A program made the position numbers and the translations under genes. A stretch of DNA of 64,000 nt from assembly GCA_963820825.1 (NCBI GenBank), contig CAWGBN010000006.1:659670-723669 (forward strand), given 5' to 3'. Shown one piece after another: positions 1,668 through 40,947 of this stretch (positions within the stretch are counted from its first letter, which is position 1; the number at the start of each line of letters is the position of its first letter). The notes under the pieces are model-generated. The model was not told the origin of the DNA and ran no database searches. It saw only the letters and a program-made list of their open reading frames with translations. Source of the stretch: Vulcanimicrobiota bacterium (GTDB lineage: Bacteria; Vulcanimicrobiota; Vulcanimicrobiia; Vulcanimicrobiales; Vulcanimicrobiaceae).

Positions 1668-1709
1668 GATCGAAGGACCAACGGAGACGCCGATAAAATG
1701 GAGACGGGC

Positions 1710-2285
1710 ATGTCGAACATTGCGTGGGAGTCCGATTACCAGGGCGCGCTCGAACGCGCGCGTGCCGAGCGAAAGTTCGTCTTTCTGGACGTCTTCAACC
1801 CTGGTTGAGGGGGATGCCAAGCGCTGGATACCGTGACGTATCCGCAGACCGAGGTCGCCGAAGCGATTCTCGCCCATAGCATTCCCGTTCAATTCGACAA
1901 CTCAAAGAAAGAGAACAACGTTTTCCTGCACGGCATCCACCACATCTGGACGCCGGACGTTCGCATTCTCTACCACGACGGGTTCGAGCTCTACCGCTGG
2001 GATGGTTTCCTGCCGCCTGCGGAGTTCGCGGCGCGAACGCTCTGCGGGTTCGGTCTTGCCTATCTTCGACTGAAGCGCTTCGAGCAGGCCGAGGAAGTCT
2101 ACGTCGACGTCCTCAAGCGCTTCTCGACGACCTACGCGGCGCCCGAGGCGCAGTATTATCTCGGCGTCACGCGTTACCGGCGAGATCCGGACAGCGACGA
2201 GCTATTGACCCAGTGGGCAAATCTCCGCTCGCGCTATCCCGAGAGCGAGTATCGCGTCAAGCAGTCGTTCAAAGATTTTCCGTAG
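1710..2285 (+). CDS. Predicted selenoprotein: thioredoxin-like domain (UxxC) with C-terminal TPR
   Basis: ATG 1710 behind GGAG; MSNIAWESDYQGALERARAERKFVFLDVFNPG-TGA(1806-1808)-GGC continues in frame into ORF 1833..2285; SECIS-like hairpin follows. Confidence 0.85.
1823..1845 (+). promoter_or_regulatory. Bacterial SECIS-like hairpin
   Basis: GC-(bulged T)-GGATAC / loop CGTGAC / GTATCC-GC; loop begins 23 nt after the in-frame TGA. Confidence 0.7.
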
Positions 2286-2829
2286 GCCTGCGAAGCGACG
2301 ACTCGATCGACGCGCGCAGCTCGGACGACGGGGCGTTCCAAAGATCGGTAAACGACTTGAGGATGCGGGCCGTCAGTCCCCAGATATGGTGCCCGCCGTA
2401 ATCGAAGGCATAAAGCGTTCGTCCGAGCGTCTTGCTTCGCGTGGTATCCTCGCGCACGGCACCCGGTTCGACGATCGCTGCCAGCGGAACGGTAAAGACG
2501 CCAACGGTCTCGGTGTGATCGATCGTCAACGGCGCGCCGGGATCGAGAATGCCGACCATCGGGGTAACGAGAAAGCGGTTGGCGACCTGCCGTACGCCGG
2601 GGAGTTGCCCGACGATGCGAACCCGATCCGAAGCAACTCCGACCTCCTCGTGCAGCTCGCGCAGCGCCGTGACCGCCGGATTGCCGCCGTCGCCCGGATC
2701 GGCGATCCCGCCGGGAAGCGCGACCTGGTTTGCATGGCGGCGAAGATGCCCGGCGCGCTCGATAAAGACGACGCCGTGCGGAGCGTCGGCGAAGACCGCA
2801 AAGATAACCGCCGCGTCTCTCCACTCCAT
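2269..2829 (-). CDS. NUDIX hydrolase, CoA pyrophosphatase-like
   Basis: LRRHANQVALPGG...TALRELHEEVG Nudix box and IWGLTA motif; start MEWRDAAV. Confidence 0.88.
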   Translation of the reverse strand: MEWRDAAVIFAVFADAPHGVVFIERAGHLRRHANQVALPGGIADPGDGGNPAVTALRELHEEVGVASDRVRIVGQLPGVRQVANRFLVTPMVGILDPGAPLTIDHTETVGVFTVPLAAIVEPGAVREDTTRSKTLGRTLYAFDYGGHHIWGLTARILKSFTDLWNAPSSELRASIESSLRRPTENL

Positions 2830-2858
2830 CGTGTGCCTTTGCGGCGGATTGCCGGCCC

Positions 2859-3290
2859 TTAGGGAGTGGCGGTCGAGGTGCTTGCGCGGATTCGCGCGAC
2901 CTGAGCCGGGCTTACCGTAGAAGCTTGATTGCCCCACGCGGTGCGAATGTAGGTGACGACGGCGGCGACGTCGGCGTCCGAAAGCCAATTTCTCCAGCCG
3001 GGCATCCCGCCGGTGTAGCGATGACCTCGTACCGTGATGTCAACGAGCATCCCGTTGAGGGTCGCAGCGATTGCGGCGCTCGGATCTTTCGCCGTGACGT
3101 GCGGATTCTTGGCCAGTGGAGGAAACGTTCCGATAACGCCTTCGCCCGTTGCCTCGTGGCAGATGGCGCAACGGTCTTGGTAGATTGCGGCACCGTTCGG
3201 TGCGGCATCGGCCGGTCCGTCGCGGAGCAATGCGAACGCGCATGCGACAGCGATGGAAACGGCGGCGAGCATGCTCTTCGTACTCATCAT
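2859..3290 (-). CDS. Exported mono-heme cytochrome c
   Basis: Signal peptide, CAICH heme motif, FPPLA, MPGW axial Met. Confidence 0.9.
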   Translation of the reverse strand: MMSTKSMLAAVSIAVACAFALLRDGPADAAPNGAAIYQDRCAICHEATGEGVIGTFPPLAKNPHVTAKDPSAAIAATLNGMLVDITVRGHRYTGGMPGWRNWLSDADVAAVVTYIRTAWGNQASTVSPAQVARIRASTSTATP

Positions 3291-3308: not shown

Positions 3309-4661
3309 CTAGAGAGCGACGGTCATGCCGCGTTCGGCCGCGCTCGCCGCGACGCCGCGCTCTTTGAGAAGGGCGGCGAGCGCCGCAGCGCTCCCCGGCT
3401 CGGCGTGGACGAGATAGACGTTCACGTTGGTCGAGCCGATGGTTCCGAGCCAGCGCAGCAGTTCGGATTGGTCTGCGTGAGCGCTGAAGCCCGCGAGATG
3501 AACGATCGTTGCCCGAACGATCAAGCGGTCTCCGAAGATGCGAACCGGGCTCGTTCCGTCGATGATGAGACGCCCCAGCGTTCCGTGGACTTGGTAACCG
3601 GGAAAGACGATCGTCGCGCGCGGGTTGCAGAGATGGCGATGCAGATGGTGCAGGATGCGCCCGCCCGTGGCCATGCCGCTCGAGGCGAGAACGATGACCG
3701 GACCGCTGACCGCGTCGATCGCCTTCGACTGCTCGGCGGTGACGTCGAGCGTAACGTTTCGGCAGCCGAACGGCGCGCCGTCGCGATGTGGTAACGGCTT
3801 ACACGCCTGGGGGTAACGCGCAAAGACCGCATCGACTTCGATCGCCATCGGGCTGTCGAGGTGAACCGGAATCTTCGCAAGCGCCAGCTCGGTCTCTTGA
3901 AGCCGGCCGATTGCGACGAGCAAGTCTTGTGCCCGCTCGACTGCGAACGTCGGTATCACGATCGGGCCCCCGCGCTCGATTCCATCGAGCAAGGTCGCGC
4001 GCAGTATCTCGAGCGAGTCGGACGGGTGAATGCGGTTGCCGTAGGTCGCCTCGCAGACCACCGTATCGGCCGCTTCGAGCGGCGTCGGATCGTCGAGCAG
4101 CGCCGAATCGTAGCGTCCGACGTCGCCGGAGAAGATCGTTCGTCTTCCTGCGCATTGCATCGACACGTAGGCAGCGCCGATGATGTGTCCGACGCCGTGA
4201 TACCTCAAGCGCGCGCCGCAGACGTCGAAATCCGTCTCCAATGGAACGGCCTCGAGCTGTCGAAGCGCCGTCCGCACGTCGGCATCGGTGAAGAACGGCG
4301 ACAAGCCGTGCGAGCGCTCGTGAGAGAATCCACGCTCGTGCATATGCCGCTGCAGATGGGCCGCATCCTCGAGCACGATTGCGATAACGTCGGCGGTCGG
4401 TGGCGTGCAGTAGATCGGGCCGCGGTATCCGTCGCGCACGATCTTCGGCAGATAGCCGACGTGGTCGAGATGGCCGTGCGTGATCACGATCGCCTGGAGT
4501 TCCGCAGGAGCGATAGGAAGCGGCGCGTGATTGAGCGCTTCGATCTCGCGCGGCCCTTGGAAGAGGCCGCAATCGACGAAGAGACTCTTACCGGTGACGG
4601 TGACGAGGTGCTTGCTCCCCGTGACGGTGCCGGCCGCGCCGACGAACGTGAGCTCAGCCAC
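3309..4661 (-). CDS. MBL-fold beta-CASP metallo-hydrolase (RNA-processing type)
   Basis: GAAGTVTGS, THGHLDHVG, EATYG, FSAHADQ motifs. Confidence 0.92.
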   Translation of the reverse strand: MAELTFVGAAGTVTGSKHLVTVTGKSLFVDCGLFQGPREIEALNHAPLPIAPAELQAIVITHGHLDHVGYLPKIVRDGYRGPIYCTPPTADVIAIVLEDAAHLQRHMHERGFSHERSHGLSPFFTDADVRTALRQLEAVPLETDFDVCGARLRYHGVGHIIGAAYVSMQCAGRRTIFSGDVGRYDSALLDDPTPLEAADTVVCEATYGNRIHPSDSLEILRATLLDGIERGGPIVIPTFAVERAQDLLVAIGRLQETELALAKIPVHLDSPMAIEVDAVFARYPQACKPLPHRDGAPFGCRNVTLDVTAEQSKAIDAVSGPVIVLASSGMATGGRILHHLHRHLCNPRATIVFPGYQVHGTLGRLIIDGTSPVRIFGDRLIVRATIVHLAGFSAHADQSELLRWLGTIGSTNVNVYLVHAEPGSAAALAALLKERGVAASAAERGMTVAL

Positions 4662-5229
4662 GCGGCGCTTGAAAGGCGATCGATGTCGAACGGCCGCCGC
4701 CGGTAAACTGCTGCGTGCAGCGGTCGATCAAGCGTTCAGGGCTCTCTTCCTCGACGAGCACGGCGCCCGTCTCCTTATTGAAGAGCGCGGCGATCTCGGC
4801 GAAGTGATTCGATATGCCGCCCGACTTCAATAAGACGCCGACCAGCTTGCCCTCGTCGTACGCGATGCAAAACTCGCCGAGCGTCCCGCTACGGCCGCCG
4901 ATGAAGATGACGAAATCGGAGCTGTGAATGTTAGCGATCTCGCGTCCCATGAGCCCCGATCCGGTGAAGACCATCGTCGTGTACGGATCGGTCGGCGATT
5001 CGTATACCTGGACGTGCTCTTCGGGTGAATGCGCGGGCGAAATTCCGAGGCTCTCGCCACCGGCGTCGTGCGCGCCGAGCACCGCAGCGTGAGGAAGTCC
5101 GGGGCACGCTCCGGTGACGATCACCGCTCCGCTGCGGGCGATGCTCGCGCCGACGCGTCGTGCCAACGCGACGTCGTGGTCGCTCAGCGCTCCGCCGGAC
5201 GACCCCATCACGCCGATCTGCATTCTCAC
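4654..5229 (-). CDS. LOG/SLOG-family Rossmann-fold nucleotide-binding protein
   Basis: VTGACPGLP, GGRSGTLGE motifs. Confidence 0.8.
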   Translation of the reverse strand: MRMQIGVMGSSGGALSDHDVALARRVGASIARSGAVIVTGACPGLPHAAVLGAHDAGGESLGISPAHSPEEHVQVYESPTDPYTTMVFTGSGLMGREIANIHSSDFVIFIGGRSGTLGEFCIAYDEGKLVGVLLKSGGISNHFAEIAALFNKETGAVLVEEESPERLIDRCTQQFTGGGRSTSIAFQAPRG

Positions 5230-6290
5230 GGGCTCAAGCTACCTCGGCCCGCGTTCTCCCACCCGAGAACGCGAGCTACCAGTTCGGTGCGGTTCCGGCT
5301 CCGCGTCTTGTCGACCATGCTCCTGACATGATGCTGAACGGTTGAGTGGGCGATGTTCAGCTTGCGGCCGATCTCCTCGAGCTGCTCTCCATCGAGCAGC
5401 ATCGCCAGTACCTGCAGCTCACGAGGCGAGATATGATAGCGTGCGGCCGGCCCTCTGAGCGATTTCGGCGGCCTAAGCCGGTCGATGCGTACGCCGATGA
5501 AGAGTCCTGCGGGGCCTGACATTGGCTGCGTTCGCACGACTAAAAACGGAACGGGACGAGCGATGCCGGCCGCCTGCGTGCCGGACTCCTTACGCCAGCC
5601 GGCGATCAGCCCTCGCACGGCTTCTTCGAGCACTCCGGGTAGACGATCGGCAATCCGCGTGCGTAGCCCGGTAAGTGCGACGCGGCGTTGCTGTTCGGAC
5701 GTCCATGCCAGCACGATCTGAAAGTCGCGGTTTAGAACGTAGAACGATTCGCCCGAATCTTCCAGCGACTCGGCGTGTCGCGCTTCGTCGTCGAGTCGCT
5801 CGTCTACGTCGCGCGCAGTGGAGCGTTCGGTCTTGGGATCATCGAGACGCAGCGCCGAGAGGCGCTCCGACGTCGCATCGAGTGAGAGCGCCAAGACGCT
5901 GATTTCGCTCGAGGTGAAAGGTCCCAACTCGCCCGTGCGCAGGAGCGTGAGAATTCCAAAGCTGGCCTGGGAGTCGGCGAACAGCAGGGTGATTCCGCTT
6001 TCGAAATCGCCGAGCGGACCGAGCGTCGCAGCGATGCGCGGGCCTTTCTTCACCTTCCCGCGCTGGCGGGCGAACTCGTCCCTGAGCCCCACCAGGTCGC
6101 CGCCGTTTCCCCGGGAGTCGAGCAAGAGACCAGCTAGCTCTCCGTCGGCCATGAAGCGCGCAAAGGCCCAGCGCGAGGCCGGCACCACGCGCAGGATCGC
6201 TTTAATGATCGGATACGCCGGATCCGACTCCGGCACGAAGTCGGCCCGGGCCGTCAGGTCAGGCGATTTCGCAGGATCGGAGCTTTTCAC
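5226..6290 (-). CDS. LuxR-type HTH transcriptional regulator
   Basis: C-terminal ISPRELQVL...IGRKLNIAHSTVQHHV. Confidence 0.85.
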   Translation of the reverse strand: MKSSDPAKSPDLTARADFVPESDPAYPIIKAILRVVPASRWAFARFMADGELAGLLLDSRGNGGDLVGLRDEFARQRGKVKKGPRIAATLGPLGDFESGITLLFADSQASFGILTLLRTGELGPFTSSEISVLALSLDATSERLSALRLDDPKTERSTARDVDERLDDEARHAESLEDSGESFYVLNRDFQIVLAWTSEQQRRVALTGLRTRIADRLPGVLEEAVRGLIAGWRKESGTQAAGIARPVPFLVVRTQPMSGPAGLFIGVRIDRLRPPKSLRGPAARYHISPRELQVLAMLLDGEQLEEIGRKLNIAHSTVQHHVRSMVDKTRSRNRTELVARVLGWENAGRGSLSP

Positions 6291-40871: not shown

Positions 40872-40947
40872 TGGTGGAGATGGGGGGACTCGAACCCCCG
40901 ACCCCTTACATGCGAAGCAAGTGCTCTACCAGCTGAGCTACATCCCC
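40872..40947 (-). tRNA. tRNA-Ala(CGC)
   Basis: 76 nt GGGGATGTAGCTCAGCTGGTAGAGCA...TTCGCAT...GGTTCGAGTCC...CTCCACCA; G3:U70 pair; encoded CCA. Confidence 0.97.

Follow-up and report, generated by a model that had tools for sequence, protein, structure and literature searches.

Evidence for a thioredoxin-fold/TPR selenoprotein of a known family, shortened in public annotation, in a Vulcanimicrobiota bacterium

The stretch of DNA analyzed here (64,000 nucleotides of the genome of a Vulcanimicrobiota bacterium; "the window" denotes this whole stretch) harbors near its beginning a gene interrupted by an in-frame TGA. The list of open reading frames (ORFs) obtained with translation table 11 gives at this place an ORF of 150 amino acids (aa), from the GTG at 1833 to the TAG ending at 2285. 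An earlier reading of the letters alone (the sequence-only reading) had pointed out that the frame is open well before that GTG, and this is confirmed: from the ATG at 1710 to the TAG at 2283-2285 the frame is the same and its sole interruption is the TGA at 1806-1808. If this TGA is translated as selenocysteine (Sec, U), the locus yields a 191-aa product, hereafter P0001, containing FLDVFNPG-U-GG-C. The evidence reported below strongly supports the idea that TGA 1806-1808 is a Sec codon and that 1710-2285 encodes one selenoprotein of 191 residues, with a thioredoxin fold and tetratricopeptide repeat (TPR)-like helices, belonging to a known family. The features of the locus are listed in Table 1.

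Table 1. Features of the putative selenoprotein locus (positions are those of the window; CDS, coding sequence; SECIS, selenocysteine insertion sequence)
Feature	Position	Strand	Basis
GGAG, 9 nt ahead of ATG 1710, probable ribosome-binding site	1697..1700	+	sequence; function inferred
Whole predicted selenoprotein CDS, 191 codons + TAG	1710..2285	+	alignment with orthologues, starting at residue 1-4 and reaching the end; dN/dS
Thioredoxin-fold domain, residues 1-102, including W80-T81-P82 (nt 1947-1955)	1710..2015	+	structure matches, conservation
TGA, very probable selenocysteine codon, U33	1806..1808	+	orthologue TGA column, Cys in distant homologues
Redox motif UGGC (UxxC), following strand 23-29, at the N-terminal end of helix 34-43	1806..1817	+	AlphaFold2, Pfam
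Codons 36-44 (C Q A L D T V T Y), synonymous change nearly nil	1815..1841	+	entropy windows, dS
Lower extension of 2 bp (G1823-C1845, C1824-G1844) with bulged U1825, specific to the window sequence and a few relatives	1823..1845	+	fold
Putative SECIS hairpin, 6-bp stem GGAUAC/GUAUCC, 6-nt loop CGUGAC	1826..1843	+	stem pairing, RNAalifold, wider loci
Pipeline-called short ORF, 150 aa, for which the GUG in the SECIS loop is taken as GTG "start"	1833..2285	+	ORF list
TPR-like helical domain, residues 103-191	2016..2282	+	sub-cut-off Pfam, structure matches

When 61 genomes of the same bacterial class, the window's own among them, were searched in six frames, 27 full-length orthologues were retrieved, from 99 to 48% identical and each containing one in-frame TGA. 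In their alignment (A1) the TGA falls in the U33 column in all cases (27/27, or 26/26 without L039, which comes from the unpublished genome G059), in the context x-P-x-U-G-G-C. Two further genomes were left out of the alignments, i.e., G044, in which the gene is split by a frameshift, and G041, in which fragments lie at contig ends; the search reported a TGA in the N-terminal pieces of both, its column being unchecked. The remaining 32 genomes gave either no match or weak ones (E-values from 1e-4 to 1e-8), which fall in the thioredoxin-like part of a roughly 600-aa protein, and no Cys-form orthologue was found in the 61 genomes with P0001 as query. The protein of about 600 aa (G000:C6:284336-284608, with counterparts in nearly all the 61 genomes), whose N-terminal thioredoxin-like domain is about 30% identical to residues 2-106, is probably a paralogue of the Thioredox_DsbH/DUF255 type. 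As for G044, which is 97% complete, the orthologue (L047, G044:C2:301278-301839) lies in two frames, with a break at about residue 70 representing either a frameshift or an assembly error.

The ratio between nonsynonymous and synonymous substitution rates (dN/dS) within the genus amounts to 0.14 upstream of the TGA (codons 1-32; 163 of the 171 within-genus pairs usable) and to 0.08 from codon 47 to the end (167 pairs usable); the former value indicates that the 32-codon piece is translated in the same frame. Besides, TGA is also the terminal stop of the same gene in 12 of the 27 orthologues and, therefore, the standard code applies. Contigs from three RNA-library runs (X5, X6, and X19), from relatives 90-95% alike, cross 1806-1808 with no difference at those positions and extend upstream into the coding sequence of the homologous N-terminus; hence, they show the TGA in independent data, being no proof of transcription and silent on Sec. 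The search comprised 20 sequencing runs (Logan contigs), each with a share of at most 0.20, and the best-covering DNA run, X1, spans only positions 2059-2246, not the TGA. Two observations concern the upstream frame in other sequences: in some relatives, such as G005 (locus L027), the ORF of the upstream TAP-like alpha/beta hydrolase reads in frame into codons 1-32 of the selenoprotein gene, forming a 586-aa open frame, and the database entry P0272 (207 aa, with PF08386) is apparently a false hydrolase-selenoprotein fusion ending at the TGA.

A homologue search of 1.84 billion representatives gave 1460 relatives at E ≤ 1e-3, 185 of which at E ≤ 1e-10, split into two length classes: about 185-200 aa, aligning from residue 1-4, and about 150 aa. 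When 57 full-length homologues of the first class were aligned, the U column contained 48 Cys, 5 Ser, 1 Trp, 1 Asn, 1 Leu, and 1 gap. The check proposed by the sequence-only reading, i.e., Cys or a conserved TGA in this column, is thus answered by both, the TGA in the orthologues and Cys in the distant full-length homologues, and its placement of the TGA at the first Cys of a CxxC is upheld, the UGGC lying in a thioredoxin fold. The sequence D-x-V-T-Y-P is present in just one of these 57 proteins. The forms of about 150 aa, presumably shortened Sec forms, start directly after the would-be TGA, and 20 of the 42 aligned open with x-D-x-V-T-Y-P, nine further ones with M-G-(A/T)-V-T-Y-P. The five Ser forms (P0162, P0179, P0199, P0207, and P0218) have SxxC instead of CxxC/UxxC.

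The short form dominates public annotation. All the 120 public entries of the close group (P0002-P0121) are 142-160 aa long and are either called "TPR repeat protein" or unnamed, and 19 out of 20 entries of a second list are short as well; in RefSeq, two isolates harbor a 150-aa "tetratricopeptide repeat protein" (WP_223905972.1 and WP_214174094.1). In every public source checked, the close relatives are 142-160-aa "TPR repeat", "BamD", or "TolA-binding" proteins. The suggestion that standard pipelines shorten a 191-aa thioredoxin-TPR product was therefore correct, since public entries lack the N-terminal part.

Downstream of the TGA lies a hairpin whose stem arms, GGATAC (1826-1831) and GTATCC (1838-1843), enclose the loop CGTGAC (1832-1837). 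As the sequence-only reading had stated, the loop is placed 23 nucleotides (nt) past the TGA (1809-1831), and the base of the stem 17 nt past it; the 23-nt spacing is identical in the 27 orthologues, whose alignment is ungapped. The bulged U that had also been described does exist, U1825 separating the 6-bp stem from a 2-bp extension, but it is not conserved: A1 column 45 is variable in the orthologues, and positions +38/+39 are variable in 80 loci of a wider set (see below). The 24-nt hairpin 1823-1846, which counts in this non-conserved extension, has a folding energy of -9.7 kcal/mol (z -3.61), equalled by 1 out of 200 shuffles.

The hairpin was also examined comparatively. Normalised synonymous entropy over codons 36-44 is 0.048, versus a gene-wide median of 0.638, which is the lowest value of 184 nine-codon windows, with none of 100000 permutations as low; dS is 0.116 across these codons versus 1.06-1.28 elsewhere, i.e., an approximately tenfold suppression, and between the two orthologue groups furthest apart nucleotide identity reaches 0.926 over codons 36-44, versus 0.551 elsewhere. 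The stem is paired in 162/162 cells (27 orthologues by 6 bp), and all the variation observed in it, that is, one compensatory AU to GC change (in L045) and six one-sided changes to GU, preserves pairing; sliding the partner columns makes pairing fall to 28-53%. The identical 6-bp helix is independently predicted by RNAalifold.

In the available part of a recent review, the bacterial SECIS model comprises a loop of 3-9 nt, an upper stem of 4-16 bp, a spacing of 16-37 nt, a minimum free energy (MFE) of at most -7.5 kcal/mol, and a G at loop position 1 or 2, as a rule with G or U next to it on the 3' side (PMC13188914). With a 6-nt loop, a 6-bp stem, a spacing of 23 nt, and the MFE given above, the hairpin fits this published model (PMC13188914), in favor of the downstream SECIS pointed out by the sequence-only reading. 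The loop C-G-U-G-A-C has G-U at positions 2-3, which is part of a Val codon and invariant in the 27 orthologues. With Rfam, the whole window gave no SECIS family at gathering thresholds, its sole match being a tRNA.

The same arrangement was retrieved in other phyla by searching species-representative genomes with a degenerate DNA pattern (TGA, TGY six bases on, and codons for (M/L)-D-x-V-T-Y-P), which matched at least 119 loci in species-level genomes. Among the matches listed are Desulfobacterota (the most), Eremiobacterota/Vulcanimicrobiota, Planctomycetota, Chloroflexota, Bacillota, Acidobacteriota, Gemmatimonadota, Nitrospirota, Binatia, and others, including the isolates Geobacter sp. 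AOG1 and Thermalbibacter longus. The wider set consists of 80 of these loci (out of at least 119) with their flanks; the TGA and the loop G-U are fixed in it by the pattern, and positions so fixed are not evidence. A homologous N-terminal extension lies upstream of the TGA in 80/80 loci. As to the sites left free, the ACN codon ends in G in all of the 80, this G pairing with C25, while at the two-fold sites GAY is GAT and TAY is TAT in 79 loci each; the position opposite U is G in 54 loci and A in 26, either of which pairs, and loop positions 1 and 4 vary freely.

The window's genome (2.98 Mb, nine contigs, 85% complete) contains the Sec machinery that the sequence-only reading had implied and proposed to look for: selD (391 bits), selA (513 bits), and selB (296 bits), all above curated cut-offs, together with a tRNA-Sec (67.8 bits, anticodon UCA; tca according to ARAGORN). 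All four are located on the same contig as the window. In the class, selA is above cut-off in 59/61 genomes, a tally that includes the unpublished G048 and G059, the exceptions being G001 (a contig-end fragment) and G028 (59% complete); since nearly all relatives carry selA, its co-occurrence with the gene does not discriminate. A second selenoprotein gene of the same genome, outside the window, encodes an FdhA-like molybdopterin oxidoreductase (G000:C6:350087-350647, minus strand; L169:1501-2061), with an in-frame TGA in SCNRT-U-HAPS (UHxP) and a hairpin whose apical loop, GGUCU, has its G-U 20-21 nt past the UGA. With selA in almost the whole class and no fewer than two predicted selenoprotein genes in the window's genome, the use of selenocysteine by Eremiobacterota is indicated; no text pairing "Eremiobacterota" with "selenocysteine" or "Eremiobacter*" with "selenoprotein" was found in a full-text literature search.

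The "thiol:disulfide interchange protein" selenoprotein family was reportedly first predicted by Kryukov and Gladyshev in 2004 (EMBO Rep). In their available parts, two reviews, of 2022 and 2026, list it with PF13098, UxxC, and WP_011366075.1 as "predicted with high confidence", with reference to the 2004 publication (PMC9312934, PMC13188914), and Zhang et al. (2006) report it in Geobacter metallireducens, G. uraniumreducens, and Syntrophus aciditrophicus (PMC1794560). Supplement file 4 of the latter contains three sequences with LLDFFNP(G/N)-U-IGCK-x-MDAV(T/A)YP, the motif being exemplified by FFNPGUIGCKQMDAVTYP (PMC1794560). The Geobacter sp. AOG1 orthologue (L106) aligns with P0001 by BLASTP at 5e-36 (36% identity over 180/191 aa) and, compared by eye with the published G. 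uraniumreducens sequence, has in common with it LLDFFNPGUIGCKQMDAVTYPN, HHRTVGFLPPD, LLLGMGKTDFDT, and PYSLL (PMC1794560). Since the published motif and blocks match the AOG1 locus, which in turn aligns with P0001, sequence comparison assigns P0001 to this family. Hence, the label of "hidden selenoprotein" given to the gene holds for its second word, the selenoprotein being strongly supported, and not for the first one, the family being already in the literature (PMC1794560).

The published Geobacter and Syntrophus members resemble P0001 in length (about 186-190 aa), in the N-terminal I-x-W...A...K-x-x-L-L-D-F-F-N-P-G-U-x-G-C motif, in the D-A-V-(T/A)-Y-P after Sec, in the W-T-P and G-F-x-P-P blocks, and in the TPR-like tail. 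They differ in having UIGC where P0001 has UGGC, in a C-terminus PY(S/K/R)LL instead of KQSFKDFP, and in the Pfam assignment, the best match of P0001 being Thioredoxin_7 whereas the reviews assign the family to PF13098 (PMC9312934, PMC13188914).

Thioredoxin_7 (PF13899) matches P0001 over residues 5-71 with 34.8 bits (cut-off 27); PF13899 and PF13098 belong to the same group of thioredoxin-like models, and 6/6 other Sec-form members tested pass PF13098, with 31.9-47.4 bits. Over residues 106-182, TPR_16 and the other TPR Pfam families are all under cut-off, and NCBIfam has no model at cut-off for P0001 or for eight other members. The AlphaFold2 model (58-sequence alignment; predicted confidence scores pLDDT 97 and pTM 0.92) places U33 at the N-terminus of helix 34-43. 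The best structural matches of residues 1-115 by VIA-align are the C-terminal domain of DsbD (1vrs_D, Z 13.5, root mean square deviation, rmsd, 1.9 over 109 residues) and DsbH (2ju5, Z 12.8), and those of residues 102-190 are the TPRs of YbgF (2xev, Z 12.5), BamD (5efr, Z 12.2), and the Sgt2 TPR (5lyn, Z 12.0), values under about 13 being only suggestive for helical repeats. In the family W80 and P82 are nearly invariant, the latter standing where thioredoxin folds have their cis-Pro. The hydropathy profile of P0001 (19-residue Kyte-Doolittle maximum mean 0.87) revealed neither a membrane helix nor a signal-like core and, since both signal peptide and membrane helix are lacking, the protein is probably cytoplasmic.

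As for known systems, the DsbD gamma domain and DsbH share with P0001 the thioredoxin fold with a redox pair at the N-terminus of helix 1, but they are periplasmic CxxC domains (DsbD being a membrane electron transporter), whereas P0001 appears to be soluble and stand-alone, with UxxC and a TPR domain, and scores 21.7 bits against the NCBIfam DsbD model (cut-off 330). The name "thiol:disulfide interchange" is historical, and a periplasmic Dsb-type role is unlikely because P0001 has no signal peptide. CnoX/YbbN, the thioredoxin and TPR "chaperedoxin" of E. coli, whose thioredoxin domain has SxxC in place of a redox pair, as do the five Ser forms among the 57 homologues, shows the same succession of an N-terminal thioredoxin fold and TPR helices (3qou, Foldseek E 2e-5); however, its structure is not superposable on P0001 (rmsd 11.8 over 200 columns, TM-score 0.37), and it has about 284 aa, whereas in P0001 the UxxC is intact and the TPR-like repeats number only about two. 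No CnoX family model turned up in the Pfam and NCBIfam profile searches of P0001. Two groups of Thioredoxin_7-like selenoproteins with a P-G-U active site, VPGUxxT type 2 (NF041383) and Trx7/PDZ (NF041199), are weakly similar to residues 3-69 and differ from the P0001 family in architecture and motif (UxxT, CxxU); the scores lie far under the cut-offs, P0001 reaching 23.2 bits against NF041383 (cut-off 275), of which it is therefore no member, and other members of its family 15-19 bits against NF041199 (cut-off 300). None of the nine new selenoprotein families in the available part of the deep-Sep paper is of the thioredoxin or TPR type (PMC12013277).

On the basis of these data, the UGA at 1806-1808 would be decoded as selenocysteine by SelB carrying Sec-tRNA(Sec), SelB being recruited by the hairpin that begins 17 nt downstream. 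The product would then have a thioredoxin fold of the DsbD-gamma/DsbH type, a selenol/thiol pair U33-G-G-C36 at the CxxC position, and a fused C-terminal TPR-like domain. Its fold and motif suggest that P0001 might act as a selenol/thiol oxidoreductase, whose TPR domain would bind a partner or client; that it specifically reduces or exchanges disulfides or sulfenates in a TPR-held client or partner has, in our judgment, an even chance of being right.

Several observations weigh against this interpretation. Concerning the family, no direct evidence of selenium incorporation was found for any member, and in their available parts the reviews grade it as predicted, not verified (PMC9312934, PMC13188914); P0001 itself scores 25.6 bits against PF13098 (Thioredoxin_2), just short of its cut-off (27). 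As stated, the RNA contigs belong to relatives, and RNA libraries may contain DNA. Concerning the hairpin, longer stretches are no stabler than shuffles (z -0.27 for 71 nt and -0.31 for 45 nt), and therefore its real support is comparative. In the window's genome the MFE fold of longer stretches pairs GUAUCC with an alternative arm, GGAUGC 1813-1818; this was rejected as a functional 5' arm, since it is not conserved beyond the genus, and the other family among the orthologues has GGUUGC/GGCUGC, which are unable to pair. The covariation is thin, with a single compensatory pair and 20/500 shuffles matching the observed score, because the stem scarcely varies. In addition, the SECIS sub-pattern with pairing between N1 and N2 is absent, these being C and A here. 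Lastly, the neighboring genes, an alpha/beta hydrolase (144-1667) and a NUDIX gene (2269-2988, minus strand), recur in just 1 of the 26 other orthologue loci (G005), and no neighbor family occurs in more than 8/107 orthologue loci; as the neighbors are not conserved, gene context gives no functional support, and an operon-based reading of the function was rejected.

One alternative is that the TGA is a true stop, so that the locus would encode a 32-residue peptide and a separate 150-residue TPR protein starting from GTG 1833. This is how the close-group public entries (120/120 and 19/20) and RefSeq, for two isolates, read the gene, and it should also be counted in its favor that some UGA termination is expected to compete with Sec insertion under selenium scarcity. 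Yet the 150-aa product would begin inside helix 34-43, deprived of strand 1 and of the active site of a confidently modelled thioredoxin, and the Cys homologues are continuous proteins of 185-200 aa. The conservation of GTG 1833 can be accounted for by the RNA hairpin, in whose loop it sits, and by Val42, while purifying selection acts, in that very frame, on the 32 codons upstream. A stop of this kind is thus considered very improbable.

Just as little credit can be given to the idea that the UGA is read as Trp, Gly, or Cys through an altered code or near-cognate suppression. It draws on seven of nine inspected database entries, P0128, P0273, P0277, P0279, P0280, P0284, and P0435, which have W at the Sec position; nevertheless, these entries come from short metagenome contigs, and P0284 and P0435 belong to one 90%-identity cluster that also contains 150-aa forms, which fits their probable origin in gene calling under table 4. 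Moreover, TGA terminates the gene in 12/27 orthologues, selA, selB, and selD are free of internal stops, homologues have at this site Cys, which normally takes the place of Sec, and a conserved hairpin at SECIS distance coexists with a full Sec machinery. A sequencing or assembly error, or a pseudogene, may be suspected from the one frameshift-split orthologue (L047 in G044), but the TGA occurs in 27 independently assembled genomes and in 80/80 wider loci (even though it is part of the pattern), RNA-library contigs of relatives carry it, and dN/dS is low on both sides of it; this possibility appears negligible. Overall, the interpretation of the TGA as a Sec codon is retained.

A phylogenetic tree was constructed with 38 Sec and 48 Cys forms, the former being random draws of 8/25 Eremiobacterota and 30/77 wider rows, with nine non-Cys database rows omitted; the tree is unrooted and short, and its wider Sec set was selected by pattern. 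The Sec and Cys forms are interleaved, with 15 changes of label on the tree, at least six of which are forced by well-supported branches, and constraining the Sec forms to one clade was rejected (lnL, log-likelihood, 435 lower; p-AU 1e-5). Given that one hairpin is common to the Sec forms, this tree is more simply explained by Sec having been replaced by Cys repeatedly. A bolder idea, which we regard as rather doubtful, is that the Sec form is ancestral, its SECIS, which dictates the peptide D-(T/A)-V-T-Y-P, having been kept nearly unchanged across at least ten phyla, and that Cys and SxxC forms arose from it many times. In its favor are the interleaving on the tree and the frequency of the peptide in the short forms (20 of 42, and nine more with G for D) as compared with the full-length ones (1 of 57). 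As to function, P0001-type proteins could be the selenium-dependent counterpart of the CnoX chaperedoxin.

A few other observations concern the surroundings of the gene. The most frequent neighbor, although too rare for an operon (8/107 loci), is a YceI-like ORF recognized by eye, e.g., in the flank of L031. In the window, an ordinary tRNA gene (40875-40947, minus strand) is the sole Rfam match mentioned above, and an SLOG cluster4 family protein (PF18306, 131 bits) lies beside a LuxR-type regulator (4654-5229 and 5226-6290, minus strand), which are unrelated to the gene discussed here.

These findings leave the knowledge of the Sec-insertion mechanism unchanged, and the family has been in print since 2004-2006. 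What is new is the presence of a family member in Eremiobacterota, the near-invariant SECIS encoding D-x-V-T-Y-P in many phyla, and the persistent shortening of these proteins in public annotation, RefSeq included. The annotation is corrected for the window gene and for hundreds of genes alike, and the family provides a bacterial SECIS under unusually strong constraint, allowing direct searches with its sequence. If the Sec form were indeed ancestral, the family would be an unusually clean system for studying in which direction Sec and Cys were exchanged and would offer a ready-made RNA model for re-annotating hundreds of genomes.

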